Below are positions 3,432 to 63,428 of a DNA stretch of 64,000 bases, in pieces. The stretch is taken from the IMG/VR virus record IMGVR_UViG_3300033145_000529, positions 84,198-148,197 of that record; one strand, given 5' to 3'. This stretch comes from a virus. The notes under the pieces were generated by a model. That model did no database searches, was not told the origin of the DNA, and saw only the letters and a program-made list of their open reading frames with translations. The first letter of the stretch is position 1, and the number at the start of each line of letters is the position of its first letter. The position numbers and the translations under genes were made by a program.

Positions 3432-3836
3432 ATGAGCAGTAAACATAAAAGTCATAGCTTAGATAAGGAATGTCTTTGTCCAAAGTGTCATTTACGGTTC
3501 GTTTGTTTTACTGAGGAACGAGTGTTCTCTGACCCCATATATCAGGGGTTGTTTGAAGCATTGATGGCTCAAGGGAAGTCTAGGGAAAAAGCTCTTGACG
3601 AAGTGACGGCTGAAATTAAGTTTAGGATGAATAACCCTATCGAAATAGGTGGTGGAAGTAATGGTACAATGTACCCACTTCCAACTACAATACCAGCTAT
3701 CACACCAAATATTCAACCAGATGTACAACCTTGGATAGTGATTTCCGAGTATTCTGATACTGTTAATGACAAAGGAGAAGTGCAGGTGAATTATACTATG
3801 TATGATGGGAAGGAAGTTAGCTGGTTATGCAAATAA
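3432..3836 (+). CDS. Hypothetical protein with N-terminal CxxCxxRFxCxT module
   Basis: CLCPKCHLRFVCFT. Confidence 0.7.
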   Translation: MSSKHKSHSLDKECLCPKCHLRFVCFTEERVFSDPIYQGLFEALMAQGKSREKALDEVTAEIKFRMNNPIEIGGGSNGTMYPLPTTIPAITPNIQPDVQPWIVISEYSDTVNDKGEVQVNYTMYDGKEVSWLCK

Positions 3837-5815
3837 ACTTAGACAATTATGAACTCATTGAGAAAAATGCAGAAATACCTTTAATCTTGGTAGAGGCGGA
3901 ACAGTGCAAGTATATAGGTCTTGATACTGAGAATAAGGGCGGACTTGACATTCTTGCACCAGGAGTTAAGCTACTTCTTGTTCAGCTTGAAATAAAGGGC
4001 AAAGCATATATTATTGATGCCCGAAAGGTTGATATATCTCTTTTAAGTGACTTATTAATGAACAGGAAGCGATGGATTAAAATTGTCCAAAACGCTAACT
4101 ATGATTACAAAATTTTGAAAGTGCTACGTGGAATTCCTCTTCGTGGAGTCTTTGACACTAAGATAGCGGAGTCATTATTGCATATGGGAATAGGAAAAGG
4201 GGGAAATTCTCTTGATAATCTTTCACTCAAGTACCTAGACTACAAGATGGATAAGGATATTGTGTTAACATTTGTTAACCATCCTGATGATGCACCGTTT
4301 ACAGAGGAACAACTTCGCTATGCGGCTGGCGATGTTCTTGTTCTCCCAGGAATACGTAAACGACAACAAATGTATTTGAATCAGTATAGGCTTAATCCAA
4401 TTGCTGAATTGGAGTTTGCTTTAGTTGAATCAGTGGCGGAAATGGAACTTGCTGGTATTACTCTAGATTCTGAGATGTGGAATAAAAGCTTAGATAACAC
4501 TAAGAAGAAGTTATTTAAAATAAGTACTGAATTGAGGCAGGTTTTACCAGATCCACCAGTACCACCTCCCAAACTAGTGAGATTGAAGAAGGATGGTACT
4601 CCATATGCCAATACACCCAAATCAAAACCACCACCAGTTCTTAATCTCGATAGTTGGCAACAGCTTGTACAGGCTTTTAATGAAATTGGTGTAGACTTAC
4701 GGGAGGTCAATAAGAAGACGAGGAAAGGTCCAACTAATAGTGGAACTATAAAAGTCGCTCAAAGTGTCTACAATAGTGATTCTGTGAAAGCTACCACGCT
4801 TAAAAACCTAATAAAATATAGGGGACTTAATCAGGTCAAGAAAACTTTTGGTGATAATCTTATTAATTGTATTAGAGATGATGGAAGAATCCATGCGAGA
4901 TTTCATCAGAATGGAACTGAAAGTGGGCGGTTTAGTAGCTCTGCCCCCAACCTTCAAAATATTCAGAAGAAGGGCAAGGAAGGAGAGATATTAAGGTCTT
5001 GTTTTGTTCCAGCACCAGGTTATAAATTTGTCATTGCTGATTATAGTCAAATTGAATTAAGAATAGTTGCGGAGTTGAGTGGTGACCCTGTAATGTTGGC
5101 TATGCTTCAAGACCCGAAAGGGGACATTCATCGGGCTACTGCATCTCAAATGTACAAAGTTTCATATGACAGCGTTTCTACGGTATTGAGGAGAGCGGCT
5201 AAAACCTTGAATTTTGGTATTATTTATGGGATGATGATAAAGACACTTGCAGAGCGTCTTAATTGTTCTTCCACTGAGGCAGACGGTCACCTACGAAGGT
5301 ATAATGAGACATACTCTACTTTGATGGAATGGTTAAAAGATGAGGGTGATGCTGCATATAAGAGAGGTTGGACTAGAACAATTGGTGGTAGAATCAGGTG
5401 GTTTCCCACATTAAATGAGAAAGATTTTGAGACGAAGCGAGAATTTAATAATATGGTTGACTTCTTCAAGCGAGTAGGAAGGAATCACCCTGTTCAGGGG
5501 ACATCTGCTGATATGACCAAGACGTCTATTGTTCTGCTTTATTTTCCTTTGTTACACTTTACATCTAAATTAGTCAATACTATTCATGATGAACTTTGCA
5601 TTGAGACACCAATTAAGCATACTATAGAGGTGGCGCATATAGTAAAAGAGAGAATGATTCATGCAGGAGAGCAGTTCTTACACAAAGTTCCTGTCCTAGT
5701 AGATGTTAAAATAAGAGATTCTTGGTGGGTAAGTGACGATGTACCTGATGATGAAAGTGGGCAACAATTGTGGTTAATGCCACAAAGGTATGGATTGGAT
5801 GGTAACGGGCAGTAA
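3827..5815 (+). CDS. polA: Family A DNA polymerase (3'-5' exonuclease + polymerase, no 5'-3' exonuclease)
   Basis: LDTE exo I, YAAGD exo III, SGRFSSSAPNLQNI, ADYSQIELR, RRAAKTLNFGIIYG, NHPVQGTSAD, IHDEL. Confidence 0.97.
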   Translation: MQINLDNYELIEKNAEIPLILVEAEQCKYIGLDTENKGGLDILAPGVKLLLVQLEIKGKAYIIDARKVDISLLSDLLMNRKRWIKIVQNANYDYKILKVLRGIPLRGVFDTKIAESLLHMGIGKGGNSLDNLSLKYLDYKMDKDIVLTFVNHPDDAPFTEEQLRYAAGDVLVLPGIRKRQQMYLNQYRLNPIAELEFALVESVAEMELAGITLDSEMWNKSLDNTKKKLFKISTELRQVLPDPPVPPPKLVRLKKDGTPYANTPKSKPPPVLNLDSWQQLVQAFNEIGVDLREVNKKTRKGPTNSGTIKVAQSVYNSDSVKATTLKNLIKYRGLNQVKKTFGDNLINCIRDDGRIHARFHQNGTESGRFSSSAPNLQNIQKKGKEGEILRSCFVPAPGYKFVIADYSQIELRIVAELSGDPVMLAMLQDPKGDIHRATASQMYKVSYDSVSTVLRRAAKTLNFGIIYGMMIKTLAERLNCSSTEADGHLRRYNETYSTLMEWLKDEGDAAYKRGWTRTIGGRIRWFPTLNEKDFETKREFNNMVDFFKRVGRNHPVQGTSADMTKTSIVLLYFPLLHFTSKLVNTIHDELCIETPIKHTIEVAHIVKERMIHAGEQFLHKVPVLVDVKIRDSWWVSDDVPDDESGQQLWLMPQRYGLDGNGQ

Positions 5816-5993
5816 AGTTGATGACGCTATTACTTGTATTGTAGCGATATACCGCACTTGTCGGCAAGCTGTCATCTACAAATATACTAGAAAGATACCC
5901 GCATAATGAAGAATTGCCAGGATTAGAGGAGGAGTGCGAAAAATGTGAATTTAGTTTTTTGCGTGCTTCTTCTAGGAGTAGAAGTCATGTATC

Positions 5994-8131: not shown

Positions 8132-8875
8132 ATGGAAATAAGTTATACTATGCTCCATTCTTTAATGGAATGTGAATACAGTTACTACTTGAGATATGTT
8201 GAGAGAGTTCCTATTAGGGAGTCGTCAGCTTCAGTTTATGGGACTGCTGTTCACAGAGCTATACATACAGGATATGAGAATAATCTAGCTAGAGATGACT
8301 GGGCAAAGGTATTTAAACATGAATGGGTAGTTTTAACATCAAGCAAAGATATAGCTTTTTATAATGAGAACGAATATCTGAAGAAGTTCAAGGATGGGCA
8401 ACAACTTCTTTTAGATTATTATGATACATTTGTAAAAAAAGAAAAAAAACCGCCCCAAATGTTAGAATACTTTTTTGGGAGAGATAAAGCTGTAAAGCTT
8501 GGAAAGCATGTTATCATAGGAGTCCTCGACCAAATAGATGCCAGGAGTAGAATTATTGATTATAAAACTGGTATTAAACCAACACAAGCGAAGTTAGACC
8601 TTGATTTACAGTTTACAATTTACAGCTATGCTTATAGACAACTGTTTGACCGAGAAGAAAGTGGTCTTGTTTTGAGGCATCTTGGTACTATGAAAGATAT
8701 GAAAACAAAACGTACTGAAGAAGATTTTGAGCTTGTCAAGGAAGAAGTTGATAAGGTTGAGAGAAGATTGAAAGGTAAAATATTTGTTAGGAATTTAGGT
8801 AGGGGGTGTGCTAATTGTTATTTTATTGAACACTGTCTAGGCAAGGAGAGGAAAATTGGGAGAAGTTGGGCATAA
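8132..8875 (+). CDS. PD-(D/E)XK (RecB/AddB-like) exonuclease
   Basis: ISYT..C, GTAVHRAI, GVLDQID, IIDYKTG, QFTIY, C-terminal CANCYFIEHC. Confidence 0.88.
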   Translation: MEISYTMLHSLMECEYSYYLRYVERVPIRESSASVYGTAVHRAIHTGYENNLARDDWAKVFKHEWVVLTSSKDIAFYNENEYLKKFKDGQQLLLDYYDTFVKKEKKPPQMLEYFFGRDKAVKLGKHVIIGVLDQIDARSRIIDYKTGIKPTQAKLDLDLQFTIYSYAYRQLFDREESGLVLRHLGTMKDMKTKRTEEDFELVKEEVDKVERRLKGKIFVRNLGRGCANCYFIEHCLGKERKIGRSWA

Positions 8876-10413: not shown

Positions 10414-10611
10414 ATGCCAGTAGATAAACTTGAAAAACTAAGAAAGACAGACATAGACCTTAGTAGCATAACATTAAATGTATTCATGCATAGAGTTATT
10501 TGTTGTTCTGAGTGCGGGGAAACTCAATTTACCTTACGTAGAGTGAGGGATAAAGAAGGCAAGAAGATTAAACCTTCGAAATTCATTTGTGTGGAGTGCT
10601 ATAAAGGGTGA
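10414..10611 (+). CDS. Small zinc-finger protein
   Basis: CSECG..CVEC; RBS GAGGA. Confidence 0.6.
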   Translation: MPVDKLEKLRKTDIDLSSITLNVFMHRVICCSECGETQFTLRRVRDKEGKKIKPSKFICVECYKG

Positions 10612-10844
10612 AGAGATTATTTATAGAGTGCTCCAGTTGTCATTATATAATCTTACCGAATCCAGAGAAGATTCCTGTACTTGTTGAAGTTTTGGACAGT
10701 AATAAACTTTACAAGTGTAAGAACTGCGATACTGTGATGGATTTTTATTCTATCCATATTTGTTATAGAGACCTCACTGACGAATGTAACGATTGCAGAT
10801 TCCGTTTCTTATGTTACACAAACGATGCCACAAAAAAGGCTTGA
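10608..10844 (+). CDS. Small Cys-rich protein with C-terminal CxxCxxRFxCxT module
   Basis: CYRDLTDECNDCRFRFLCYT. Confidence 0.7.
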   Translation: MKRLFIECSSCHYIILPNPEKIPVLVEVLDSNKLYKCKNCDTVMDFYSIHICYRDLTDECNDCRFRFLCYTNDATKKA

Positions 10845-18970: not shown

Positions 18971-20323
18971 ATGCTTTATAATTGTGATTGTTTAAAAGGA
19001 ATAAAAACTCTTAATGATAACAGTGTTGACTTAGTAGCCACCGACCCACCTTATGGTATAGGGTTTATGGGTAAGGACTGGGATAAGGCGTTACCTGATA
19101 AAGAGATATGGGCTGAGTGTCTGAGGGTGTTAAAGCCTGGAGCATTTGCCTTTGTAATGAGCATACCGAGAAGCGACTGTCTGAGCAGGATGATTATCAG
19201 CCTAGAGGATGCTGGATTTAGGGTAGACTTCAGTCCGATATATTGGGTTTATGCGTCAGGATTTCCAAAGGCAAAGAATATAGGGAAGGCGGTGGATAAG
19301 AGAATGGGGGCTGAGCGTGAAAGAACCCACCCTGATAATGAAAAGAGGTTTAAGGAATACAAAGAGCAAGACGGTAATGAGCGGAAAACTTTTGGTGAAT
19401 TAGATACTATGCCACTGACACCCCAAGCCAAAGCCCTAGATGGTAGTTATGGTGGGTTTCAACCCAAACCCGCAGTAGAAGTAATAATAGTCTGTATGAA
19501 GCCCTTGTCTGAAAAGACCTTTGTTGACCAATCCCTGAAGAACAGGAAGGGTATAACTTGGCTGGATGATTGTAGGATACCGTACGGTGGTGAAACCCCG
19601 AATATGGGTGGCAGGAAGAATGCCAAGATGGGTGGTGACCAACCCTATGGCTTCAAAATAGAGGGCAGACCTGATACACCAAATACAGTAGGTCGTTTCC
19701 CAGCCAATCTATTAGTCTCAGATGATGTGCTGAATGATGGGGGAGTAACAAGGAGTGGATTTATGAAGGGGAAGCATATAGCACCCAATTCTTATGGTGG
19801 ATTTAACACTCCTACTGAAACTCAGACCTACCCCGATTCAGGCTCATTTTCCCGCTACTTTGATTTAGATAAATGGTGGGAAGAAAGGGTAAAGGAACTC
19901 CCCAAACCTGCTCAACAGACCTTTCCATTTCTAATAGTCCCCAAAGCTAGTAAAAGTGAGAAGAATAGGGGGTTAAAAGGTGGTTCAGGTAGCAATACAT
20001 ATAATCGCAAGTGCCTTAATTGTGGCAAGTGGGAACGCAAACAGGGGTTGTCTGATAACTATACTTGCTATTGCGAGAAGCCAGATTGGGAACAACCATC
20101 GGGCAACAATCATCCCACAGTAAAACCCATCAAACTAATGTCTTACTTAATAACATTAGGCAGTCGTGAAGGTGATATCATTCTAGACCCGTTCTTAGGT
20201 TCAGGAACTACAGCAATTGCTTGTGAGATTGTGGGTCGTGATTGTATCGGTTATGAAATAGATAAAGGCTATTTTGATATAGCGATAAAAAGAGTGGAGG
20301 CATTTAAAAGTGCAAGAAATTAG
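18971..20323 (+). CDS. N6-adenine/N4-cytosine DNA methyltransferase (beta class)
   Basis: TDPPYG, HPTVKPIKLM, LDPFLGSGTT. Confidence 0.93.
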   Translation: MLYNCDCLKGIKTLNDNSVDLVATDPPYGIGFMGKDWDKALPDKEIWAECLRVLKPGAFAFVMSIPRSDCLSRMIISLEDAGFRVDFSPIYWVYASGFPKAKNIGKAVDKRMGAERERTHPDNEKRFKEYKEQDGNERKTFGELDTMPLTPQAKALDGSYGGFQPKPAVEVIIVCMKPLSEKTFVDQSLKNRKGITWLDDCRIPYGGETPNMGGRKNAKMGGDQPYGFKIEGRPDTPNTVGRFPANLLVSDDVLNDGGVTRSGFMKGKHIAPNSYGGFNTPTETQTYPDSGSFSRYFDLDKWWEERVKELPKPAQQTFPFLIVPKASKSEKNRGLKGGSGSNTYNRKCLNCGKWERKQGLSDNYTCYCEKPDWEQPSGNNHPTVKPIKLMSYLITLGSREGDIILDPFLGSGTTAIACEIVGRDCIGYEIDKGYFDIAIKRVEAFKSARN

Positions 20324-20747: not shown

Positions 20748-20759
20748 AAGGTTTAAGAA

Positions 20760-21017: not shown

Positions 21018-21049
21018 CGAGGATGTAGACAACCTGCTTTCGGTGATAA

Positions 21050-22074: not shown

Positions 22075-22102
22075 AAATTATTGAAAAAACCTTAAAAAAG
22101 GC

Positions 22103-46585: not shown

Positions 46586-46594
46586 CTTCTCTCC

Positions 46595-46894
46595 TTATCC
46601 ATTGTACCAAGCTTGTGAGTGTGTGTTACACACTACATCTGTCCCAAATATCTCAATAAGATTGCGTCTTATAGTTTCCCTAAACTCTCGACCAGTTTCG
46701 TCATCCAGAATAGCGTCCCAACTCCTCCCAACATACCTTTGCTCATCCAAATCTGGTGCGTATTCAATGATGAGGTCAGCATTGCGTATCTTTTGCTCAA
46801 TTTCCTCAGTAATGTCTGCCTTCTCCACTTGAATACCATAAAGCAAAAAACTTTCTGAGGAACTATTACTAACAAATCCTATTCTTACTTTCAC
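46595..46894 (-). CDS. SNSSS-leader protein 4
   Basis: MKVRIGFVSNSSSESF. Confidence 0.8.
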   Translation of the reverse strand: MKVRIGFVSNSSSESFLLYGIQVEKADITEEIEQKIRNADLIIEYAPDLDEQRYVGRSWDAILDDETGREFRETIRRNLIEIFGTDVVCNTHSQAWYNG

Positions 46895-46903
46895 TTCATC
46901 CTC

Positions 46904-47455
46904 CTAATGACAGCTTATTTGTTTGTGGGGAAGATTATTGAATATCCCCCCATGTTCTAGCACAGAGAAATAATCTCTATCATCTCCATATCTAAATATG
47001 TAAATTTTCTGCCCTTTAAATTCTTTTAGTAACTCGTCCACGACTACCTGTGTGTGTTCATCACAAGCTTTAGAGTATGCTTTCCAATCGGTCTGCTCTC
47101 TAACTCTAGCTGTAATAATAGTTTTGTTATCATATTCTAGCTCGGTAATGTGATGTGGTATTATCTTGAAATCATCGTAATTTGGTTGTCCGCTCAACCA
47201 ACCACCCCTGACAGCATCATTAACTCTATTTAGCATTGTTGTGTGCTTCCACCGTTTTTGTGGTTTTATATCCCCCCACACTGTCTGTGCAATCTTCTTC
47301 GTTTCAGTTTTGCCATCATCATAAGGATTGCCCAGAAATGGATGACCATTAAACATCATTTCATGCACATCTTTGATGCTCTTTGGTTCACGTGGAAAAG
47401 CCACCACAAACATAGAGCTAGAACTATTACTTACAAAACCTGTACGTATCTTCAC
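46904..47455 (-). CDS. SNSSS-leader protein 3
   Basis: MKIRTGFVSNSSSSMF. Confidence 0.8.
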   Translation of the reverse strand: MKIRTGFVSNSSSSMFVVAFPREPKSIKDVHEMMFNGHPFLGNPYDDGKTETKKIAQTVWGDIKPQKRWKHTTMLNRVNDAVRGGWLSGQPNYDDFKIIPHHITELEYDNKTIITARVREQTDWKAYSKACDEHTQVVVDELLKEFKGQKIYIFRYGDDRDYFSVLEHGGIFNNLPHKQISCH

Positions 47456-47509
47456 GTTGTTTCCTTACCAGAACTTTTCATTTCCTAGTGATATTTCTGA
47501 CCTTATCTT

Positions 47510-47692
47510 TCATTTTACCCCAATTACCATACACCTTTCGGGTAGTTGTAAACCTTTCTTCAGAGTTACTTCTAAATATTCCGACCCTTCTGTAGTATAG
47601 CAATGAAATTTAATAGGACATTTAGTACACTCTCCATTACACCTAACAGTAGGAAATCCCTGCATACTTATCCACCTTCTATATTTGCCCAT
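47510..47692 (-). CDS. Small protein with CxxCxxKFxCxT module
   Basis: RCNGECTKCPIKFHCYT. Confidence 0.7.
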   Translation of the reverse strand: MGKYRRWISMQGFPTVRCNGECTKCPIKFHCYTTEGSEYLEVTLKKGLQLPERCMVIGVK

Positions 47693-47693
47693 A

Positions 47694-47936
47694 TTACATG
47701 GTCATATCTGCTTGTAAGTTATGCTTTTCCAAAAACGCTGGTATTAGCTTATCGTGCATACTTAGATTACCATGAAAATGTTTCTCACTTTCATAGATAT
47801 AGGTATCACCGCTTTTTGCCTCAGCTTCATGATAAACAAACCGAAAATCTATCATCTGTTCTTTTGTCATACCATCTTTATCAAGGACAAAGGAACAGGA
47901 AGAAGAATTACTTACAAAACCACTTCTAATTTTCAT
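47694..47936 (-). CDS. SNSSS-leader protein 2
   Basis: MKIRSGFVSNSSSCSF. Confidence 0.8.
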   Translation of the reverse strand: MKIRSGFVSNSSSCSFVLDKDGMTKEQMIDFRFVYHEAEAKSGDTYIYESEKHFHGNLSMHDKLIPAFLEKHNLQADMTM

Positions 47937-48298
47937 CTTTTTTCACCTCTATTAGTATAGCATATAAACCTCATTTGACATTCATTACACATTAAGTCAC
48001 ATTCTAAATCATCGGTCTCGGCAGTAGGTTGAATCCCATCACCCCATACTACGTTCTCAACACCAAGTTTTTCCATAAATGCTCCCATATCAAAATTGTC
48101 CATAGAAGTGCTACTGTATAGCACACCTTTTCTTATGGTAATATCCCAAGCATCACTTTTTGCGTATTCTATACCAAGCCTCTCACCCCATATCTGATGA
48201 TTGAGTATTTTACACAGTTGTTCGAGTGATAACTTGCGTAATGATACCACAAAAGACGAACTGCTACTATTACTTACAAATCCATTTCGTATCTTCAT
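47933..48298 (-). CDS. SNSSS-leader protein 1 with C-terminal CxxCxxRFxCxT module
   Basis: MKIRNGFVSNSSSSSF..ECDLMCNECQMRFICYT (ORF track extends to 48376). Confidence 0.8.
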   Translation of the reverse strand: MKIRNGFVSNSSSSSFVVSLRKLSLEQLCKILNHQIWGERLGIEYAKSDAWDITIRKGVLYSSTSMDNFDMGAFMEKLGVENVVWGDGIQPTAETDDLECDLMCNECQMRFICYTNRGEKR

Positions 48299-48482
48299 CG
48301 GTTTAAAATCTATTCCAAATTTTGCTTCTATTCGTTTTAGCTCCATATCGTATCTGACCACCTTGCCTGAAACCAATACCCTGAACCTCTTTTACTATAA
48401 TGGGCTATAATTTGCTCATTATTTGTTATCAACATAGTGTTTCTTATAAATTTGGTAGTGATGCAAACTTATGTTCACATTG

Positions 48483-49562
48483 CTAACTATTTTTTATCCC
48501 TAAATCATATATTAAACATTTGCGACAACCGTTACAATCTATTTCTGCGAGACTTCTCTTTCTATATTTATCAAGCAATGGGTGATTCCAAATGTCTTTA
48601 ACAAAATCATTACAATTCAAGACATCTAATCCTTCAGACCACTCCCCAACACCTTCGGCAAAGCTACAGGGGAAATATTTTCCGTCTACGTTGATATAGC
48701 CAGAAAATAAACCAAATGACTCACAGGATTCTGACATAGTTTTGTATGTCTCAAAGTTTTTATCACCTTCAACTGCCTTCAGAAAAGCTGGTGCAGAACA
48801 ACTATCAAACCCAAACTTGCCACCAGTTTCCATTGCAGTTCCAATTAAATCCTTGAACCTTTTCATCGAATCGAGTTGATTCAAGTGATTCCTTTTACCT
48901 TTTGGTTTTAACCACAAGAATACTACTGCGTTCAAGCCTGCAAGTCGTGAGTCTATTACTTTGTCAAGGAGTGTAGTATAACAATCCATAAAAGTTTCTT
49001 TTGAAAGGAGAGAGTGTATATTTACCTGCTTCATTCCCTTATCTGAAAGCTCCTTAACAGCATTATAACAGGTATCTTTATCATACTTACTAACCGCAAC
49101 AGCTCCACACAGCTCCACTAACTTATCATACAAATCAGATGTCATTCGCTCACCGTTTATGGTAATATTTGGAATAACATTACTTTTTCTACAATACTCC
49201 ATCATCTTCCATAAGTTAGGATTACTGTCAATATCACCTATTCCGAATGCTACTTGTGTCAAGGTCGGTGGCATTTTGTCCAAAATAACCTTGAATGTCT
49301 CAAAGGACATGTTCTTACCCTTGTATGTACCATTACTTTTGTAGCACCAGGGGCACGCTCTAGAACAAATGGTACTTACCTCTATGTCCAATATCTCATT
49401 ACCGAATGGCGAATATTCGGGGTCATCTTTCTTGTTCTTCCCCCACCTAGCAAAGAAACCAGTATTCTTATCAAAATAAGAATTAAAATTTTCGGAACGA
49501 ACTATTTTTTCATCTACAGTATCAGTTACTAGCAACTCTTTTGCACCACCTAATGAACACAT
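48483..49562 (-). CDS. Radical SAM enzyme with C-terminal SPASM/Twitch-like extension
   Basis: CSRACPWCYK (CxxxCxxC); C-terminal SCES..YINVDGKYFPCSF..CRKC. Confidence 0.9.
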   Translation of the reverse strand: MCSLGGAKELLVTDTVDEKIVRSENFNSYFDKNTGFFARWGKNKKDDPEYSPFGNEILDIEVSTICSRACPWCYKSNGTYKGKNMSFETFKVILDKMPPTLTQVAFGIGDIDSNPNLWKMMEYCRKSNVIPNITINGERMTSDLYDKLVELCGAVAVSKYDKDTCYNAVKELSDKGMKQVNIHSLLSKETFMDCYTTLLDKVIDSRLAGLNAVVFLWLKPKGKRNHLNQLDSMKRFKDLIGTAMETGGKFGFDSCSAPAFLKAVEGDKNFETYKTMSESCESFGLFSGYINVDGKYFPCSFAEGVGEWSEGLDVLNCNDFVKDIWNHPLLDKYRKRSLAEIDCNGCRKCLIYDLGIKNS

Positions 49563-49773
49563 CTTCTGTCATCCCCCATTTCATTCTGTTTATATCTCTA
49601 TGTACCCACTGAACATTGCCGATAATGTAACCTTTATTTGTTAATAATAGTCTTTCATTTCCGCAATCACAACTACAAAGCCAAACAGGTTGTTTATGTT
49701 TATTAGTCGTCTTATCTATAACTAACCAACGACCAAATCTTTTATTTAATAAATCCAATCCATAACTATTCAT
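49522..49773 (-). pseudogene. Internally deleted HNH-type homing endonuclease
   Basis: RFGRWLV..WLCSCDCGN joined directly to KGYIIGNVQWVHRDINRMK. Confidence 0.7.
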
Positions 49774-49780
49774 TATCCTT

Positions 49781-49809
49781 ATTATAGCATATGCCGTAAG
49801 TAATGTCAA
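49781..49809 (-). promoter_or_regulatory. Sigma70-type promoter heading the radical SAM operon
   Basis: TTGACA-N17-TATAAT with TATG on the - strand. Confidence 0.85.
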
Positions 49810-50513: not shown

Positions 50514-51245
50514 TCATCTAAAGCAATAGAACCTTTGCTTACAATTTTTACACTTATCAGAACTTCCCCACCACCTCTGACAAGCTCTTTTCCTTTGCTC
50601 CAACTCAATTAAAATTGGTTGAAGATGTTCACTAAATTCAACAGGTGCATCAACAAGTCGTAACTGTTTATCTATATGTTTAATGCTTAATGCTTCCTTT
50701 ACCGTTTTCTCAATTTCATCCCTAATCAGTCTGCCCCGTTCAGTACCCGTACCTCCAGAATGTGCAATTGCCGCTGGATGGTATGTTACAATCACACTAT
50801 ACTTCTGTCGCCAAGTAAATTTAGTTCCTACAATATCTTTCATCGCAACCTTTGTATCACCACCCAAAGCAACGTAAGGTATCTTACCCATACAAACAAT
50901 GATTACTGGTTGAAGTGCCTCTACCTCAGCGTACAAGCGGTCATTACAGCATCGTATTTCTACATCAGTTGGTGTGCGGTTGTATGTTTTCCCATCCACT
51001 ACTTTAGTTGGTCTGCACGTAACAACATTTATATAGTTTCCATCTTCCCGTTTTGCACCTAAAGATTCAACGATTCGATTAAAGTCTTGACCTGCCACTC
51101 CAACCAAAGGTCTACCTTCTTGTGCTTCATGGTATCCAGGAGCCTCTGCTAAAAACAATACCTTTGAGTCGTGTAATTCAGACGGTACATAAACATTATT
51201 TTTTAGTGGGCACTCTTCACATTTACCTGATGTAGCTTTTATCAT
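50514..51245 (-). CDS. Uracil-DNA glycosylase family 4 with appended CxxCxxRFxC module
   Basis: CEECPL, AEAPGYHE..GRPLVGVAG, NVVTCRP..NRTP, TYHPAA; tail ACQRWWGSSDKCKNCKQRFYCFR. Confidence 0.9.
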   Translation of the reverse strand: MIKATSGKCEECPLKNNVYVPSELHDSKVLFLAEAPGYHEAQEGRPLVGVAGQDFNRIVESLGAKREDGNYINVVTCRPTKVVDGKTYNRTPTDVEIRCCNDRLYAEVEALQPVIIVCMGKIPYVALGGDTKVAMKDIVGTKFTWRQKYSVIVTYHPAAIAHSGGTGTERGRLIRDEIEKTVKEALSIKHIDKQLRLVDAPVEFSEHLQPILIELEQRKRACQRWWGSSDKCKNCKQRFYCFR

Positions 51246-52631: not shown

Positions 52632-53009
52632 TCATACCTTCACCCTCATTACAAGTTTAGTTTCAGTTTCGCCAGAAGGAGTAGTGCGTTGCTGTTCTTC
52701 AATTTCATAGGGTATTTTCCCCTCACTAAACATATATTTTGCCACGCTCCTTAAATCTTTTATCTTATATCGTTTTATAGTATCTTGCGGAATTTGTATT
52801 TCGTTCCGTTCTGATAAACATAAAAACCTCAGTCTACAACCATCGCACAGTGATTTTCGCCTACCCCTGCAATCAAACCCATTAAATTCTTGATTACCCT
52901 CAAGTTTGATAGTAACTCCCGTTGACATTACCTTTTCACCACAATAAGTATTATTAATAAGGTTATTAACATAGACACAAAAAAAGTCATTAAAGTTCCC
53001 CATCTCCAA
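52632..53009 (-). CDS. Hypothetical protein with CxxCxxRFxC module (start probably 52928)
   Basis: DCRGRRKSLCDGCRLRFLCLS. Confidence 0.65.
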   Translation of the reverse strand: MEMGNFNDFFCVYVNNLINNTYCGEKVMSTGVTIKLEGNQEFNGFDCRGRRKSLCDGCRLRFLCLSERNEIQIPQDTIKRYKIKDLRSVAKYMFSEGKIPYEIEEQQRTTPSGETETKLVMRVKV

Positions 53010-55598: not shown

Positions 55599-56159
55599 TC
55601 AATAATGTACGTCAGCAGGTACACAAAATATACTCTTATCCCGCAATTCGGGGTCTGGTTTACCTTCGTGATTACAAGCCCACCTACTCAAAACGTGGTT
55701 TAGGTGTTCATTATCCCTTATTCCCTCACCATCTTGGTCATAAAGAGAGACACAAGGTCCTTTGTATTGCCCAATCTGATAACAACGGAACATAAAACTA
55801 TGGTCTTCAAAAAGCTGGTCATCATTATGCGTGGCAAGGAGTTTCTTCATAGGAGCAAGATTTTCAAGGAACTCTTGTTTAGTTTTCTGCATGGCTTCCT
55901 CTATCATGGAGTTCGTCTGAATGGTATAGCACTTAAAACGTTCAGAACACTTGTCACACTTGTCTGACCCCAAATCAGCACAAACCTTTACTGCTGGTGG
56001 CATTTCACCCCAACGTTCCAAAGCATGTTTATCATTGAATGTGCTAAAATAATCAAAAGGTTCACCCTCTCCACACAACCTATCCAAGACATAGTGAGCC
56101 TCACTTACTGCATCTTCCTCATCCTCTGCAAAAACTAATATTTTGACAATCATGTGCAT
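55599..56159 (-). CDS. Hypothetical protein with internal CxxCxxRFxCxT module
   Basis: VCADLGSDKCDKCSERFKCYT; ends VPADVHY. Confidence 0.75.
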   Translation of the reverse strand: MHMIVKILVFAEDEEDAVSEAHYVLDRLCGEGEPFDYFSTFNDKHALERWGEMPPAVKVCADLGSDKCDKCSERFKCYTIQTNSMIEEAMQKTKQEFLENLAPMKKLLATHNDDQLFEDHSFMFRCYQIGQYKGPCVSLYDQDGEGIRDNEHLNHVLSRWACNHEGKPDPELRDKSIFCVPADVHY

Positions 56160-56302: not shown

Positions 56303-56551
56303 TTAAACGACCTCCACATACTCCATCATAAGTTGCAAGGCTTCATCATAACTCTTACATTCATGTAATCGAGTTTGAAATTCTTCTACCAAGTAACAAA
56401 CCCCATCCCGTTCAGTGTAACATTTGAACTTGTGGTGGCAATCTTCACATCTTTCTTCGCTATGTTCAGCCCTTTTAAGAGTTCTAGTTACTATCCCAGC
56501 GAGATTGAAGACGTTGCCATCTTCTTCTGTTAGCTTACACTCTGGTTTCAT
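56303..56551 (-). CDS. Small DGNxFxL-type protein with inserted CxxCxxKFxCxT module
   Basis: EDGNVFNLAG..AEHSEERCEDCHHKFKCYT..SYDEALQLMMEYV. Confidence 0.75.
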   Translation of the reverse strand: MKPECKLTEEDGNVFNLAGIVTRTLKRAEHSEERCEDCHHKFKCYTERDGVCYLVEEFQTRLHECKSYDEALQLMMEYVEVV

Positions 56552-56737: not shown

Positions 56738-57250
56738 TCATTTCTTCCAAGCTAAACTGTCCTTCTTGTGGATATGTATTATTCTCGCTTTATGCCAGGA
56801 CCTAGTTTCCATCAATATTCTTTTCACCAAAATAGTATTTTTAATTGAGGGAGTCGCCAAACAATGGTACATGACGACAAATTTTCCCTCTTTACAAACA
56901 CGGACGGCTTCTGCGGTATATGTTCTGAACCTAAGTTTACCATATTTCTTGGTATCATAGAGCCGTTCAGCATATTCCTCGCTATAAGGTGGGTCTAGTA
57001 TGACCAAATCAAATGTGTTGTCCTCAAATGGTAAATCGTGAGCATCACCCACAAAATCGGGGTTGACCTCTGGGTCTATGTCTACTCGTAACCCGAACTC
57101 CGCTTGCCCTCCAAATGGATGTAATATCTTATGTATGGCAGGGTCTATATTTAATTCCTTTAAGAGCTTTTGCTCGAAGTGGAGAGGAAATGACCCTATG
57201 TATTTACTTTTATTTGGGCGTGGTAAAACCCACGCCAGTGTTTCTATCAT
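56738..57250 (-). CDS. DNA methyltransferase-like protein
   Basis: YIGSFP, LHPFGG, GDAHDLPF..FDLVILDPPYS. Confidence 0.8.
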   Translation of the reverse strand: MIETLAWVLPRPNKSKYIGSFPLHFEQKLLKELNIDPAIHKILHPFGGQAEFGLRVDIDPEVNPDFVGDAHDLPFEDNTFDLVILDPPYSEEYAERLYDTKKYGKLRFRTYTAEAVRVCKEGKFVVMYHCLATPSIKNTILVKRILMETRSWHKARIIHIHKKDSLAWKK

Positions 57251-57477
57251 TTCAAAACTCCTAACAACCGTTTATAGCTATACCTCTTGTCCCTTTCAAA
57301 TTTGAGGGAATAGTCAAAATTTCTCTCAGTGAGGCATTGAAATCTATGATTACATTTGTTACACTTACTAATCTTACCTCTAAATTTACAGAGGCTTTTT
57401 GGTTTGTACCCTGGTGCTGTTGGTGGCATTGGTGGCATCTCATCGCTCCATCCCACTATAAATCTCCAAACATTCAA
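57247..57477 (-). CDS. Small protein with CxxCxxRFxCxT module
   Basis: LCKFRGKISKCNKCNHRFQCLT. Confidence 0.65.
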   Translation of the reverse strand: MNVWRFIVGWSDEMPPMPPTAPGYKPKSLCKFRGKISKCNKCNHRFQCLTERNFDYSLKFERDKRYSYKRLLGVLK

Positions 57478-59158: not shown

Positions 59159-59515
59159 CTAAACAATAGCCCCTTTATTCGTGTAACAGTAGAACCTGTG
59201 TTCACATTCATCGCATTTAACTTTGTTCTCGCACCATAATGGTTGAAAGAACATCTCTAAAAACTCCCCATCTTTTTTCTTTGCCCTGCTGTTCTTCCAT
59301 ACTAACCAGATACCACCCTTATGGTATTCCAGATTAATTAATGCCCACCGATGGGAGACTTTAATCTCTTTACCATCACCACCATCACCAAGAGCTACCC
59401 CATCAACCCTTGAACATTCGGCGTAAATTGGACAGTTGTCACATTTCCTCCGCCAACATTCCATTGCCAGTTGAGTGAGGATTTCTCCACTCATATGTAG
59501 GATGCGTAGATACAA
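59159..59515 (-). CDS. Hypothetical protein with C-terminal CxxCxxRFxCxT module
   Basis: WCENKVKCDECEHRFYCYT. Confidence 0.7.
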   Translation of the reverse strand: MYLRILHMSGEILTQLAMECWRRKCDNCPIYAECSRVDGVALGDGGDGKEIKVSHRWALINLEYHKGGIWLVWKNSRAKKKDGEFLEMFFQPLWCENKVKCDECEHRFYCYTNKGAIV

Positions 59516-60156: not shown

Positions 60157-60813
60157 TTATTCCCAAAAAGAATTATTCCCCCAACTACCATACTTTGGTT
60201 TTGGCTCAGGTGCTCCTGTATAACACTTAAATCGTAAGTCACAGTTATTACATTTCTCGCTTTGTTTATTGGTTTCGTAGCAGTATTTTATAGCGAGTGC
60301 CTCGTTCACAACTCGTTCTGGTCTGTCAAATTCCCAATGAGCTTGCTCAACAAAGACCTCATTATCCTTGACAACCAAATTCCACCTATCCTCGTTGTCC
60401 TCACCCTGTGCTTCAATCTCTCCATCACAAATATGCCCCTTTAAGAAAGCAAACTGTTTTGGAAATCTGGTTTTAGCAACAGGGTCAGGTTTGAGGAAAT
60501 TTTGAATAATATACCACATCCATTCGGCTGAACAATAGAACTTCTCAGCTCCATCCCACTCAATATACTTGCCATCTTCGGTTGGTGTCCACTGACACCA
60601 CAAACCTGGTTGTTCAGGGGACGAGGTGTTACAGTCTATTATGTCGGGGTCTTCACCTTGCCCTGCCACACCAGTACCGTCAACGAAATATTCCCCATTT
60701 TTACGCAACATTCTCCTAGTCTTGGAGAACTTCTGTAAATACTCTATCTCCTTGCTGTTCAAGGTTGGTTCAATAGCTATTTCACCCCTAAAGTTTGTTG
60801 TGTATCCCATCAC
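60157..60813 (-). CDS. Hypothetical phage protein with appended CxxCxxRFxCxT module
   Basis: MGYTTNFRG..QPGLWCQW..WDGAEKFY..GEIEAQGED; tail YCYETNKQSEKCNNCDLRFKCYT. Confidence 0.8.
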   Translation of the reverse strand: MMGYTTNFRGEIAIEPTLNSKEIEYLQKFSKTRRMLRKNGEYFVDGTGVAGQGEDPDIIDCNTSSPEQPGLWCQWTPTEDGKYIEWDGAEKFYCSAEWMWYIIQNFLKPDPVAKTRFPKQFAFLKGHICDGEIEAQGEDNEDRWNLVVKDNEVFVEQAHWEFDRPERVVNEALAIKYCYETNKQSEKCNNCDLRFKCYTGAPEPKPKYGSWGNNSFWE

Positions 60814-60932: not shown

Positions 60933-61511
60933 TTACACACTTTGTGAACCATATTCCTTATCCCACCTCTCCCAACATTCGTGTTTGTCTTTGAAATGGT
61001 CACATGATGTAAATGAACTGACACCTATCCTACACCAATCCCAACGTGGTTTCTTACTATAATCTGCCAATTGATACCACCATGCGGGACAAACATAGTT
61101 TCTCATTTCAGACTTTGGTGGAAATATTGGATTTTTCAGCCATTCATTATAAGGTATTCCACCAAAATCCTCAAGCTTTAAAGTTTCCCCACCCTTACCC
61201 CCTTCCCCAACCCCAATGCCAGGATTTGTTTGAAATACCCTCTTAATCTTGTCCCTTATTTGCTGTCCTCTAAAATCAATCCATTCTACATGAATATGTG
61301 ACTTGCCAGTTCCTTTACATTTGTTGCAAACAACTCCTGCTCCATCCAATTCACCCATACCTACATAGATACCTGTTCCTTTACAAGCACCGCATTGAGT
61401 ATCAGTATAAAAGGAGAAAACAGTCGAGGTAAAGCACTCGTAACGAAACCTGCAATTATCGCAAGCTTTGTTGCCGTTAGCTTTTTGGACTTCTCTACAG
61501 TTTAGATTAAT
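60933..61511 (-). CDS. CxxCxGxG protein with N-terminal CxxCxxRYxCxT module; probable ATT start
   Basis: Frame open 51 codons upstream of the tracked ATG: INLNCREVQKANGNKACDNCRFRYECFT..CGACKGTG..CNKCKGTG. Confidence 0.7.
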   Translation of the reverse strand: MNLNCREVQKANGNKACDNCRFRYECFTSTVFSFYTDTQCGACKGTGIYVGMGELDGAGVVCNKCKGTGKSHIHVEWIDFRGQQIRDKIKRVFQTNPGIGVGEGGKGGETLKLEDFGGIPYNEWLKNPIFPPKSEMRNYVCPAWWYQLADYSKKPRWDWCRIGVSSFTSCDHFKDKHECWERWDKEYGSQSV

Positions 61512-61994
61512 CTAAATATCCCCTATCTATAGCTACCCTGATATAGAAAATATACCCCACACATGAAGCAAATTCCCCAAGCTACGGTTGCACCAGCTAT
61601 CCATGAAACAGGGAATGTAGCCACCACATGCCCAAATATAAATGATGGGATAACCAGCAAAAATACCCCCTTATCTATTCTCTTCATTTTTCTTCCCTCA
61701 CAAAGTTTTCGTCTATTGGTACTCCCTCTCCATCCTTTCCAACCTTGAAGCCATAATTGAATTGTTTCTGCTTCATATAAAGAAGTAACTCTGTTTCATC
61801 ATCGTAGGAAATAACCTCAAGTAGAGTATCACTGTCAAGTAATGCTAATTTATTGTCGGGGTATTCTTCATATAATACTCTTGCCAACGTTAATCCCAAG
61901 AATACAGACTCCGTTAATATAGGTAGAATACCATATTGTTGGCAAACAAACAGAAGTTCTGAGATATTTGTCGCACATTTAAGTGTTCTTATCA

Positions 61995-63428
61995 TTATCT
62001 ATCTTTATAAATTCCAGCTTCACGTAACTTGTTCACATCGAACTCGGCTTCACGCTGTGTCCAGCAAATAAACCGCATTTTACAAGCATCACATTGTTCA
62101 GGGTAGTTTTTGCACATTATGGGTATCTTTTGTGTACCCCTTCCATAGACATCACTAGTTTCTTCAACCGCCATAATCAGCCGACCCTGACCATTAACAG
62201 TCAAACCCTCATCCCGCAGAGCTATGATATGTTTGCACGTTCTGTTTCTACGAGTATTAAATATCCAAGATGGACAATTGTGAACATAGGCATTAGAAAT
62301 TATATAGTGTGGTTTATCATTGACCTCACAATTATAAACGTTTCCAATATATTTGTAACGTTCAATAGACCTAATAGATGTTGCAATCCAATCAGGCATA
62401 GAGTAATAATGTGTATTTGCCCCCTTTATTGCAAGACTACCACAATATTGAACTTTTGCGTTGCCAGCTCTTCCATTTATAATATAAGTATTGCGACTGT
62501 TACTTAAACACAAGGTATACAACTTGCCAAATCTTGCAGCAAGTAACTGAATTTGTAACGCTAGTGTCCTACTAGTAGTAGAAAACCTAAAACCAGAATT
62601 TGACCCATCCCCTTTAAGATATGCTTCTAAAAATGAGGTAGCTAATAATTCCTCTCCCATCAATATCCAATTAGGTATTTTCTTGTTCTCTGCACCACGA
62701 CCAAAGTGGTCACTCATAAATCGTGCTAATGGTTCATTGTGTATTGTTAAACGATAGCAGTTACCTACAACTTCGTCTGAAGTGCCAATACCCATAGAGT
62801 TGACATAAGATTGTACTTGTAAAGCATCACTTCTATCTTTATTGTTATTAAAATCTAGCGTAAACCCATTGCTATTTTTACTTCCCTCAGCAACATACCA
62901 ACCACACAACATAGCAAAATCCTGCGATAGTTTTATTTGTCGTGTACCACGATTCCGCCACTCTGGTGCTTTTACATACTTTGTCAAATCAAACATTTTG
63001 ACCACGTGTGTAGTTTTAAGTCGTGGTATCAAAAGATAATTACTTTTCTTCCTATTATGATACTCCAATTGTCCAGAAAGCTTCCACAATGGCTCGCTAA
63101 ATCTGTAGCCATTTCCATATCTATAATGTTCTACCACAAAAAATGGGTGTTCACATGTACAGCTAATTGGCAACAACCCAGTGGCTTTTATGCAAAGCAA
63201 ATCCTCATTTACTTGTCGTGTTAATACTTGACTTATTATATCTGTTTTAATATTGACTACGTTATCCCCGACAACTAAATCTTCAATGTTCTTGTTTGCC
63301 CCAAGGATAAATGTACCTTCTGGAAAACAATTACAACTAAACATACCATGTTCATCTACTTTAATAGTATAGTGCTTGTTGGGATTAGATTGAGACGAAA
63401 TTTCTGCAACAAAATTATACTGTTTCAT
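61995..63428 (-). CDS. SWIM zinc-finger protein interrupted by an intein; C-terminal CxxCxxRFxCxT module
   Basis: Predicted spliced product FSCN|CPSWIFNTRRNRTCKHI; tail MCKNYPEQCDACKMRFICWT. Confidence 0.85.
   Translation of the reverse strand: MKQYNFVAEISSQSNPNKHYTIKVDEHGMFSCNCFPEGTFILGANKNIEDLVVGDNVVNIKTDIISQVLTRQVNEDLLCIKATGLLPISCTCEHPFFVVEHYRYGNGYRFSEPLWKLSGQLEYHNRKKSNYLLIPRLKTTHVVKMFDLTKYVKAPEWRNRGTRQIKLSQDFAMLCGWYVAEGSKNSNGFTLDFNNNKDRSDALQVQSYVNSMGIGTSDEVVGNCYRLTIHNEPLARFMSDHFGRGAENKKIPNWILMGEELLATSFLEAYLKGDGSNSGFRFSTTSRTLALQIQLLAARFGKLYTLCLSNSRNTYIINGRAGNAKVQYCGSLAIKGANTHYYSMPDWIATSIRSIERYKYIGNVYNCEVNDKPHYIISNAYVHNCPSWIFNTRRNRTCKHIIALRDEGLTVNGQGRLIMAVEETSDVYGRGTQKIPIMCKNYPEQCDACKMRFICWTQREAEFDVNKLREAGIYKDR
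62277..63329 (-). mobile_element. Intein with LAGLIDADG homing endonuclease (351 aa)
   Basis: Starts CFPEGT; block B CTCEHPF; GWYVAEGS and EAYLKGDGS; VYNCEV; ends VHN followed by Cys+1. Confidence 0.92.

Follow-up and report, generated by a model that had tools for sequence, protein, structure and literature searches.

A short cysteine-rich module recurs on otherwise unrelated proteins across the window, the 64,000-nucleotide stretch of phage DNA analyzed here. We consider it somewhat probable that this module is an undescribed, portable metal-binding clasp (a Cys4 staple) carried by small phage proteins. The module is far in excess of chance, is selected at the protein level, has been grafted onto preexisting proteins, and is accompanied by a conserved fourth cysteine elsewhere in the same chain.

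Abundance, conservation, and spread of the module

The window and the whole genome were scanned in six frames with the pattern C..C..[RK][FYW].C. In the window, C-x2-C-x2-[RK]-[FY]-x-C was found in 25 copies, one for each open reading frame (ORF) listed in a preliminary description of this DNA; for four ORFs, only the choice of start codon differs from that list. The 148-kb genome gave 35 matches, 34 of them in open frames. Mononucleotide shuffles of the genome yielded a mean of 0.06 matches (maximum, 1), and shuffling residues within the predicted proteins yielded 0.03, compared with 32 observed. Thus, the motif is real and widespread, as had been proposed, and its chance rate lies far under the observed count.

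The consensus is [DE]-x-C-[DEN]-x-C-x-x-[RK]-F-x-C-[YWF]-T-x-[RK], with four non-ligand positions at least 90% conserved over 242 copies in 167 families. Acidic residues are favored at position 2 and just before the module; the 12-residue core has a mean net charge of +0.8, and its flanks are neutral. Codons vary between copies, six being used for Arg, four for Thr, and two each for Cys and Phe. Among 56 orthologue pairs, identity was 93% at the fixed positions, 39% at the x positions, and 53% over the remaining protein, while the conserved module residues used the identical codon only 55% of the time. Selection therefore acts at the protein level, in agreement with the earlier suggestion.

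In five related IMG/VR sister phages of 54-153 kb, 32-57 copies apiece were counted (32-52 by DNA pattern), and the reversed-pattern control gave 0 matches. Carriers made up 241 of 1497 predicted proteins (16%), and 12-25% of genes across the clade bear the module. In prokaryote genomes, only single matches were found, at chance level. Most likely, the module spread within a single clade of uncultured tailed phages of 130-155 kb, in which the carriers sit in the non-structural genome arms among fast-evolving accessory genes. Comparison of the module with Pfam, NCBIfam, PHROGs, and the PDB returned nothing above threshold, and zinc-finger and zinc-ribbon models likewise gave no match above threshold to the carriers. 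The module is thus unlike any described family, as had been supposed. AlphaFold2 models of carriers reached a pLDDT of 33-47 (about 61 over the module), with no confident structure.

Carriers in the window and grafting onto preexisting proteins

After masking of the module, the carriers fell into 167 BLAST families, of which 122 were singletons, and the 32 carriers called in this genome belonged to 32 different clusters. The carriers are therefore unrelated, as first described. They are small (median, 106 aa), and predicted transmembrane-like segments were found in 5 of 241 carriers versus 174 of 1256 non-carriers; this solubility favors a cytoplasmic metal site over disulfides. The module may be N-terminal, internal, or C-terminal, starting as early as residue 3 or extending to the last residues, and in 50 of 242 copies it ends no more than 2 residues from the C-terminus. 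Near module-only proteins of 44-60 aa also exist.

On the plus strand, the core at 3477-3506 (residue 16, ORF 3432-3836, 134 aa) is N-terminal to a helical domain and is retained in 33 or more metagenome homologues, and that at 10785-10814 (residue 60, ORF 10608-10844, 78 aa) is kept in the orthologues of genomes G002, G004, and G005. The 44-aa ORF 22149-22283 is almost the module alone (22239-22268, residue 31), and no orthologue of it was found in the compared phage genomes. Further cores lie at 23406-23435 (residue 103, ORF 23100-23528, 142 aa), with Ala at position 11; at 26957-26986 (residue 57, ORF 26789-27025, 78 aa); at 31074-31103 (residue 26, ORF 30999-31373, 124 aa), with Tyr at position 8; and at 35976-36005 (residue 62, ORF 35793-36113, 106 aa). 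Upstream of the core at 27822-27851 (residue 37, ORF 27714-28145, 143 aa), 30 residues are free of Cys, with His at -6 and -8 and an extra Cys downstream. A variant Cx2Cx5C without Arg-Phe occupies the N-terminus of ORF 31666-31899 (31681-31716, +); its G001 homologue shares the variant and adds a strict C-terminal module. The degenerate copy reported near 5936 was confirmed at 5935-5964 (+), where the short frame shows no clear start; it has lost the third Cys and the Arg and seems to be a relative, now decayed, of a metagenomic family.

On the minus strand, the core at 37443-37472 (residue 4, ORF 37128-37481, 117 aa; orthologues in G002, G003, and G004) lies at the extreme N-terminus, with its fourth Cys downstream. 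The core at 41028-41057 (residue 57, ORF 40977-41225, 82 aa) is preceded at a distance of 13 residues by the fourth Cys, which is part of a conserved helix-like motif, and a basic tail follows the module. Others are found at 41356-41385 (residue 120, ORF 41338-41742, 134 aa; C-terminal), 41924-41953 (residue 44, ORF 41735-42082, 115 aa), 45650-45679 (residue 28, ORF 45527-45760, 77 aa), 47600-47629 (residue 22, ORF 47510-47692, 60 aa; Lys at position 7), 52818-52847 (residue 55, ORF 52632-53009, 125 aa; Leu-Ser at positions 11-12), 55929-55958 (residue 68, ORF 55599-56159, 186 aa), 57334-57363 (residue 39, ORF 57247-57477, 76 aa), and 60223-60252 (residue 188, ORF 60157-60813, 218 aa). The copy at 45457-45486 (ORF 45373-45558, 61 aa) is decaying: its fourth Cys is lost, Thr12 is replaced by Ala, and the C-terminal domain of its homologues is absent. 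ORF 59159-59515 (118 aa) has a C-terminal core at 59186-59215 (residue 101) and a degenerate second copy at 59408-59443 (residue 25), which keeps Cx2Cx5C, has lost Arg-Phe, and aligns with a strict module of the G004 homologue. In the frame 60933-61511, the module (61434-61463) is in the N-terminal part, upstream of the first ATG (61358); judging from the sequence, translation probably starts with the ATT at 61511, which follows a Shine-Dalgarno-like AGGGGA.

Grafting was observed directly in two carriers. The family-4 uracil-DNA glycosylase (UDG; ORF 50514-51245, 243 aa, minus strand) carries the module (50523-50552, residue 232) within a 45-residue C-terminal extension, and its G001 and G004 orthologues lack that extension. 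The phrog_1933-type protein (ORF 56303-56551, 82 aa, minus strand; core at 56420-56449, residue 35) belongs to a widespread family of 65-residue phage proteins known from Herelleviridae and mycobacteriophages; here it has an insertion of about 20 residues bearing the module, which is absent from the cultured-phage homologues, and new Cys in the protein body accompany the insertion. These two cases bear out the earlier view of a portable protein-level Cys unit added to unrelated carriers in a lineage-specific manner. Module-free homologues are present in 9 clusters, and a G001 homologue of ORF 47933-48376 (147 aa, minus strand; core at 47960-47989, residue 130; family start MKxRxGFxSNSSS) is without the module-bearing tail. 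Fusions of the module to an L7/L12 C-terminal domain (CTD) and to a SWIM finger occur as well, the latter in a protein of about 125 aa that is split by a LAGLIDADG intein in the window (ORF 61995-63428, 477 aa, minus strand; core at 62064-62093, residue 446) and is intein-free in G001, G002, G004, and G005.

A fourth cysteine and the proposed metal clasp

An extra Cys outside the module was missing in 1 of 241 carriers versus 40.8 expected, and the sole exception is the decaying gene (ORF 45373-45558). It was also present in 152 of 155 database carriers. The commonest Cys total per carrier was exactly four (69 carriers), and the fourth Cys was kept in 33 of 34 aligned homologue pairs versus a background identity of 48%. 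Thus, a fourth Cys outside the module is effectively obligatory. A Cys lies within 13 residues upstream in 20 of the 25 window copies, and a His does so in 3 more. A fourth ligand 1-13 residues upstream, as proposed before, is therefore the commonest case (usually 2-14 residues upstream), but the restriction did not hold, since the Cys can be 40-100 residues off or downstream.

Metal binding, as proposed in the preliminary description, is the natural reading of this pattern, and it gains strength from a fourth Cys that is both obligatory and conserved. We infer that the three module Cys and one further Cys of the same polypeptide chelate one metal center, for which the combination of C-x2-C-x5-C and a distant Cys makes [4Fe-4S] the first candidate and Zn(Cys)4 the alternative. 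With the fourth ligand supplied by the same polypeptide, an intramolecular staple is suggested rather than a site that a partner completes. An oligomerization handle, also put forward earlier, would be another candidate. The metal site would fasten the short module to the carrier body as an intracellular cross-link, which may stabilize small, soluble, fast-evolving phage proteins, and the conserved Arg, Phe, aromatic, and Thr residues may wrap and shield it. Its spread could have proceeded by terminal extension and loop insertion into existing genes and by expansion of small paralogue arrays.

The four near-invariant non-ligand residues and the 44-60 aa module-only proteins would also fit a binding activity of the module's own. 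In addition, 40-50 extra Fe-S proteins would place a heavy load on the host assembly system; no recognizable A-type carrier gene was found in these phages.

The module might be a shared docking or localization tag, the main idea of the preliminary description, in which the metal-folded unit shows one conserved face (Arg7, Phe8, aromatic 11, Thr12, and Arg14) to a single host or phage hub and draws dozens of early proteins to one place or machine. The conservation of non-ligand positions across 167 families, the placement at N-termini, C-termini, and loops, the near module-only proteins, and the location among largely singleton accessory genes in the non-structural arms are all consistent with this, as is the reported docking of WhiB-like proteins on sigma region 4 through the surroundings of their Cx2Cx5C cluster (PMC6954389, PMC13013590). 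Nevertheless, we regard a tag as unlikely: no hub candidate was found, the conserved fourth ligand in cis means that no partner is required to complete the site, carriers such as the UDG and the L7/L12-CTD protein have unrelated destinations, and aromatic, Arg, and Thr residues next to small metal sites can be conserved for structural reasons alone. A redox-, oxygen-, or iron-responsive switch or degron is improbable. In this reading, a labile [4Fe-4S], present on one phage protein in six, would make the folding or half-life of the carrier depend on the oxygen status or Fe-S supply of the host, as loss of the cluster does in FNR. The Cys pattern is that of FNR and of RseC, and many modules are surface-exposed tails; it would, however, require Fe-S as the metal, and it is compatible with the staple as an added property. 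Still less probable is a nucleic-acid-binding knuckle, like the retroviral CCHC or EndoIII/MutY loop, tethering carriers to DNA or RNA. The fusions to UDG and the SWIM finger, the conserved Arg and aromatic residues, and the strongly basic tail behind the module in one family point that way, but the core is barely charged with neutral flanks, acidic residues are preferred at position 2 and before the module, the L7/L12-CTD and many other carriers have no other nucleic-acid features, and the EndoIII-loop model PF10576 matches no module.

The carriers could alternatively be one old paralogous family of small proteins diverged down to a bare metal motif, without grafts. Their small size agrees with this, as does a 12-kb stretch of G001 with 14 C-terminal-module ORFs of <110 aa, most of which share a KFKxGD-type start. 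We consider this very doubtful given the variable module position, the fusions to recognized unrelated domains (UDG, SWIM, and L7/L12-CTD), the module-free homologues, and the insertion into a family of Herelleviridae and mycobacteriophages. As the sole explanation it is ruled out by the UDG extension and the phrog_1933 insertion; because the module was grafted onto unrelated domains, paralogue expansion explains part of the count and not the phenomenon. A recognition or cross-linking site for a phage radical SAM/SPASM enzyme, in line with the earlier suggestion of a radical SAM substrate, has little to recommend it. Thioether-forming Cys of sactipeptides can be spaced Cx2Cx5C, the radical SAM gene in the window (48483-49562) adjoins carriers, and it has orthologues in G001, G002, G003, and G005. 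However, no radical SAM gene was found at E <= 0.001 in G004, whose complete genome has terminal repeats and carries about 36-40 modules; this disfavors the substrate idea. Moreover, the carriers do not cluster beside the enzyme but are dispersed over both arms of the genome, and the fourth-Cys rule better fits metal ligation.

Comparison with known systems

WhiB-like proteins (PF02467) also bind [4Fe-4S] through C-x(n)-C-x2-C-x5-C and are small and often phage encoded. In contrast to the module carriers, they have a full four-helix Wbl fold and a Gly-rich turn, and a genome of Actinobacteria or their phages encodes only one or a few of them, whereas the module is on 16% of genes. PF02467 gave no match at the family cut-off in five genomes; one carrier (ORF 60157-60813) had a sub-threshold match over its Cys region. 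No module scored above threshold with the Pfam models of EndoIII Fe-S, WhiB, or RseC. In RseC, three conserved Cys in CX2CX5C form an oxygen-sensitive Fe-S cluster, and the position of the fourth Cys is not conserved (PMC11729352). RseC differs in being a membrane protein family, and its model (PF04246) had no match anywhere in this genome. Escherichia coli RseC presumably has an Arg between its second and third Cys, positioned as in the module.

FNR and EndoIII/MutY also have C-x2-C-x5-C; in EndoIII/MutY the fourth Cys precedes it by six residues, and in FNR it lies elsewhere. As in the module, this cluster motif is at a protein terminus, but the flanking residues differ, and PF10576 matched only the UDG's own N-terminal Cys pair. 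The Cys motif of IS1182-type transposases (DDE_Tnp_1_6, PF13751) resembles the module as well. Five carriers had sub-threshold matches (9-18 bits versus a 25.1-bit cut-off) to profile positions of about 20-60, the transposase C-x2-C-x2-R-x2-C-T-like stretch; no DDE domain is present in these carriers, and we know of no characterized function for the transposase motif. Zinc knuckles and small zinc fingers (retroviral CCHC and archaeal zinc-finger micro-proteins) are likewise short, self-contained Cys-rich units of many small proteins, with aromatic residues beside the ligands, but zinc knuckles use two ligand pairs, while the module has three ligands within ten residues and one distant.

AddB, Dna2, and Cas4 have a structural [4Fe-4S] site, the "iron staple," with the same CX2CX5C and a fourth Cys of the same chain at a variable, sometimes long distance; it pins parts of the fold together, and ligand mutation destabilizes the protein (PMC3439918, PMC3466216). 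At least one crystal structure of a Cas4-like nuclease shows Zn bound by this Cys arrangement (PMC3466216), so the metal of the module may be Zn or Fe-S. The Cas4-like nuclease of the window (8132-8875) has the classical site without the Arg-Phe...aromatic-Thr signature. Whereas the ligands of the iron staple span one fold, that of the RecB/PD-(D/E)XK nucleases, the module has its own Arg-Phe...aromatic-Thr signature and moves among at least 167 unrelated small proteins.

Abundance and distribution of the Cys module

The Cys module is genuine, is under strong selection, and extends across the clade. The phage record is 148,197 bp long, and the window makes up its final 64 kb. A six-frame scan of the window with the pattern C..C..[RK][FYW].C gave 25 matches, all 25 of which fell in the open reading frames (ORFs) listed in the preliminary description. 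The pattern matched 35 times over the whole record, and 34 of these matches fell in open frames. Mononucleotide shuffles of the genome (n = 50) gave a mean of 0.06 matches (maximum, 1), and shuffling of residues within proteins (n = 300) gave 0.03 expected versus 32 observed. The consensus over 34 copies was [DE]-x-C-[DEN]-x-C-x-x-[RK]-F-x-C-[YWF]-T-x-[RK]. As had been pointed out earlier, codons varied between copies (six for Arg, four for Thr, and two each for Cys and Phe), and conservation therefore lies at the protein level, not in the DNA. Comparison of 56 orthologue pairs gave 93% identity at the seven fixed positions, versus 39% at the five x positions and 53% over the remaining protein, and identical residues used the same codon in just 55% of cases, as elsewhere in the proteins. 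The window also holds a decayed module remnant (5935-5964), a weakened second module copy within ORF 59159-59515, and a dying carrier gene (45373-45558).

A search of IMG/VR with a degenerate DNA pattern returned at least 115 stretches, many on the same few contigs of 54 to 153 kb; among the 115 stretches listed, 61 were chance-like matches. The multi-copy module loci all had a G+C content of 36 to 44%. With a looser pattern, the five sister records gave 52, 46, 32, 40, and 45 matches, and the reversed-pattern control gave 0 in each. When one simple ORF caller was applied to the whole records of the phage under study and its five sisters, 241 of 1,497 predicted proteins carried the strict motif (16%; 12 to 25% per genome). 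Between 48 and 105 of this phage's 279 proteins were shared across the six genomes, which therefore constitute one clade.

No close relatives were found among 50,697 deposited phage genomes; DNA polymerase matched deposited phages at less than 31% identity, and terminase gave one match at 24% identity. In 596 Gb of prokaryote genomes, no multi-copy module locus was found, and the 56 single matches compare with an estimated chance expectation of about 40. Prokaryote matches giving the full in-frame motif were mostly in short frames, and a few matches on short MAG contigs resembled phage DNA. Freshwater Actinomycetota were rejected as a host lead: the recurrent match (four checked genomes) was out of frame and fell by chance within a conserved gene for a sugar-binding protein. 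Small unnamed metagenome or virome proteins of 48 to 193 aa were all that profile searches of 5.8 and 1.84 billion proteins retrieved. The strict motif was present in 74 of the 74 newly retrieved representatives inspected, some of which had two modules. The search of 1.84 billion representatives gave 78 significant matches, which undercount the family, because a 12-residue motif yields only about 35 to 50 bits. The module makes it easy to recognize, from sequence, an uncultured phage lineage without relatives among deposited phage genomes.

Addition of the module to unrelated carriers

Once the module was masked, the 241 carriers fell into 167 BLAST clusters, including 122 singletons, and the 32 carriers called in the phage under study fell into 32. 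When carriers were left unmasked in an all-against-all BLAST, the alignments mostly covered just 12 to 25 residues around the motif. The median carrier size was 106 aa. Of the module copies, 64 started within the first 30 residues, 89 ended no more than 12 residues from the C terminus, and 89 were internal; the position of the module was unchanged among orthologues. Nine BLAST clusters mixed module-bearing and module-less members.

Four cases show the addition of the module to a pre-existing fold. Four conserved cluster Cys residues belong to the family-4 uracil-DNA glycosylase (UDG; 50514-51245) itself. In four orthologues, a 45-residue C-terminal extension bears the module, and the orthologues of sister phages G001 and G004 stop short of this extension. 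The 82-aa protein encoded at 56303-56551 is a member of phrog_1933. Phages of Listeria, Bacillus, and Mammaliicoccus have homologues of about 65 aa, among them the module-less protein of Listeria phage LP-124, and these align with it end to end except for an insert of about 20 residues; this insert is the module, and new Cys residues appear in the body alongside it. Matches of the phrog_1933 type obtained by tblastn include mycobacteriophage homologues. A SWIM finger followed by the module, in a protein of about 125 aa, was kept in all five near-complete genomes and occurred in no deposited phage. In sister phages, the module was appended C-terminally to an L7/L12 C-terminal domain. The UDG and phrog_1933 cases, together with the masked clusters, bear out the original proposal that the module had been added to unrelated carriers.

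Paralogue arrays supply part of the module count. In G001, an array (24.9-35.3 kb of the genome; L123:4900-15400 in our set of sister stretches) comprised 14 ORFs of less than 110 aa with a C-terminal module in a 12-kb stretch. Most of them had a KFKxGD-type (possibly SH3-like) start, and in several the fourth Cys lay about 45 to 70 residues upstream, in the body. Such arrays cannot account for the UDG, phrog_1933, SWIM, and L7/L12 fusions. DNA matches between modules of different families spanned 24 to 44 nt at 89 to 100% identity, of which the motif itself fixes about half of the bases, in an AT-rich genome.

The SWIM plus module protein of the phage under study (61995-63428 (-)) is split within its SWIM zinc finger by a LAGLIDADG intein of about 350 aa, and intein-less orthologues are found in four sister phages. 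One BLAST cluster of this phage ties 61995-63428 to three other large ORFs, a link suggesting that the genome has several inteins or homing endonucleases. The L7/L12 fusion at L148:18435-18941 (-), on another sister stretch, consists of the C-terminal domain (Pfam E = 1e-12) and then the Cys module; it has orthologues in G003 and G005 and none among the carriers of the phage under study. In 60933-61511 (-), the first ATG, GTG, or TTG comes only after the N-terminal part that encodes the module. An ATT (61511), 7 nt after AGGGGA, opens the frame, which suggests that ATT may be the start codon; the body of the protein has DnaJ-like CxxCxGxG repeats. ARAGORN located 27 tRNA genes, including tRNA-Cys(GCA), among module-bearing small ORFs at 12080-35493 (+), and no tmRNA was detected by it at positions 20001-40000 of the genome. 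A CCA-adding tRNA nucleotidyltransferase and a DNA methyltransferase are encoded at 38050-39447 (-) and 18971-20323 (+), respectively. A family of 32 members starting with MKxRxGFxSNSSS (46178-49809 (-) and sister loci) adjoins the radical SAM gene in the phage under study and in G001, G002, G003, and G005. It is missing from G004, as are all radical SAM genes, and a few of its members carry the Cys module.

The fourth cysteine and a candidate metal clasp

Only 1 of the 241 carriers was without a Cys outside the module, versus 40.8 expected from the non-carrier background (Cys content, 1.9%). This lone carrier is the decaying copy at 45373-45558, which has lost the Cys found at position -8 in its homologues, has Ala in place of Thr at module position 12, and is missing the C-terminal domain. 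An extra Cys was present in 152 of 155 database carriers; of the three without one, two were fragment-like. A total of exactly four Cys per carrier was the commonest case (69 carriers). A fourth Cys or His had earlier been placed 1 to 13 residues upstream in most copies, and the fourth Cys did lie upstream in 63 of these carriers, within 10 residues in 41 and 40 to 100 residues away in 12; in 6 it was downstream. Alignment of 34 homologue pairs showed the fourth Cys retained in 33, versus a background identity of 48%. Hydrophobic segments were rare in carriers (5 of 241, versus 174 of 1,256 non-carriers), and the carriers are therefore soluble and cytoplasmic. In such proteins, four conserved Cys residues are more indicative of a metal site than of disulfides.

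Three Cys residues in C-x2-C-x5-C spacing plus a further Cys are also found in FNR, in WhiB-like proteins, and in the cluster loop of EndoIII/MutY. The "iron staple" of AddB, Dna2, and Cas4 is a [4Fe-4S] cluster held by C-x2-C-x5-C and a distant Cys of the same chain; it clamps parts of the fold together, and mutation of its ligands destabilizes the protein (PMC3439918, PMC3466216). In RseC, three conserved Cys residues with the same spacing give an oxygen-sensitive cluster (PMC11729352). From the ligand pattern of the iron staple and RseC, the module is therefore read as a portable clasp. That it binds a metal is probable. An Fe-S cluster would be the likelier occupant because of the C-x2-C-x5-C spacing; Zn(Cys)4 is a possible alternative, and a Cas4-like nuclease with the same Cys arrangement contained Zn in its crystal (PMC3466216). 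For an A-type carrier (PF01521) encoded by the phage, one sub-threshold match was all that was found.

As a whole, the reading that we lean towards is an intramolecular staple. The module and one Cys of the carrier would fold around a single metal centre, which would pin a tail or loop onto the carrier body, and the conserved Arg, Phe, aromatic, and Thr residues would shield the metal site and hydrogen-bond to it. AlphaFold2 models of the SWIM plus module protein (9-sequence alignment) and of an N-terminal-module family (36 sequences) had low to moderate confidence over the module, with no regular secondary structure there. Foldseek comparison of the model with the PDB gave nothing at E <= 0.001, and an ESM Atlas feature search gave no usable match.

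Other readings were weighed against the staple. A shared docking or localization tag would agree with the near-invariant non-ligand face and with the existence of near module-only proteins, but no hub was found and the site is completed in cis, so that such a tag appears doubtful. It is also unlikely that the module is a proteome-wide [4Fe-4S] tag with a role beyond stapling. Such a tag would either make the folding and survival of one in six phage proteins dependent on host Fe-S and redox state, as a global infection checkpoint, or use the Arg-Phe/aromatic-Thr face to dock dozens of effectors on one host or phage hub, as WhiB does on sigma. A redox- or iron-sensitive switch, which would be an added property of the Fe-S version, is quite unlikely. 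A nucleic-acid knuckle is even less to be expected, given the nearly neutral charge and the fusion of the module to L7/L12 as well. A single diverged paralogue family is highly improbable and, as the sole explanation, is refuted by the UDG extension and the phrog_1933 insertion. Least credible is the early suggestion that the module is a substrate of the phage radical SAM enzyme, which G004 speaks against: this complete genome has about 36 to 40 modules and no radical SAM gene (no PF04055 match).

Metal-binding Cys motifs are common, but one 12-residue unit on at least 167 sequence families and 12 to 25% of the genes of a phage clade appears to be without a described phage parallel. If it is a plug-in staple, it would show how phages stabilize tiny, fast-changing proteins without a hydrophobic core, and it would be a cytoplasmic counterpart of disulfide-rich secreted effectors; it could also serve as a compact engineering tag. 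If the site holds Fe-S, the host would be burdened with dozens of extra cluster proteins, and infection would be tied to iron and redox state. If a role beyond stapling is true, the module would be the first short tag described in phages that can be moved between proteins and that targets them or makes their stability conditional.

Relation to described families

No module scored above any family threshold in Pfam, NCBIfam, or PHROGs, where significant matches belonged to carrier bodies only. The module profile matched no PDB chain; the best hit (E = 0.088) was a chance nonapeptide of an RNase P subunit. The early impression that the module lies outside described families is thus upheld for these four resources, and no published description was found in the part of the literature covered. 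A precomputed PF25958 label on the carrier at 55599-56159 did not recur in a direct Pfam scan.

Against WhiB-like PF02467 (cut-off, 23.6 bits), the best scores in five genomes were 16.8 and 14.1 bits, in the Cys region only. The cut-off (25.1 bits) of PF13751 (DDE_Tnp_1_6), the model for the C-terminal region of IS1182-type transposases, was not reached by its four genomic matches, which scored 9.5 to 17.8 bits and covered profile positions 3 to 59 only; no DDE domain was present. These sub-threshold matches show a resemblance of motif type, not membership. RseC/MucC (PF04246) had no genome candidate at E <= 10. The EndoIII/MutY Fe-S loop is a C-x6-C-x2-C-x5-C arrangement at the end of an HhH-GPD glycosylase, and no module matched its model (PF10576; 17 positions; cut-off, 20.5 bits), whose sole match, at 14.3 bits, was the N-terminal Cys pair of UDG.

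The only protein with a PD-(D/E)XK domain is a non-module protein, a Cas4-like nuclease (8132-8875 (+); Pfam E = 5e-24), whose own C-terminal Cx2Cx5C is of the classical type and lacks the Arg-Phe/aromatic-Thr signature. The carriers resemble the AddB/Cas4/Dna2 iron staple in that an extra Cys of the same chain is present in 240 of 241 of them and conserved in 33 of 34 homologue pairs; unlike those enzymes, the 55 carriers scanned with Pfam had no PDDEXK (RecB/PD-(D/E)XK) match. On this comparison, the module is best regarded as resembling the iron staple in its working while standing outside that nuclease family, as a putative new mobile variant of such a site.
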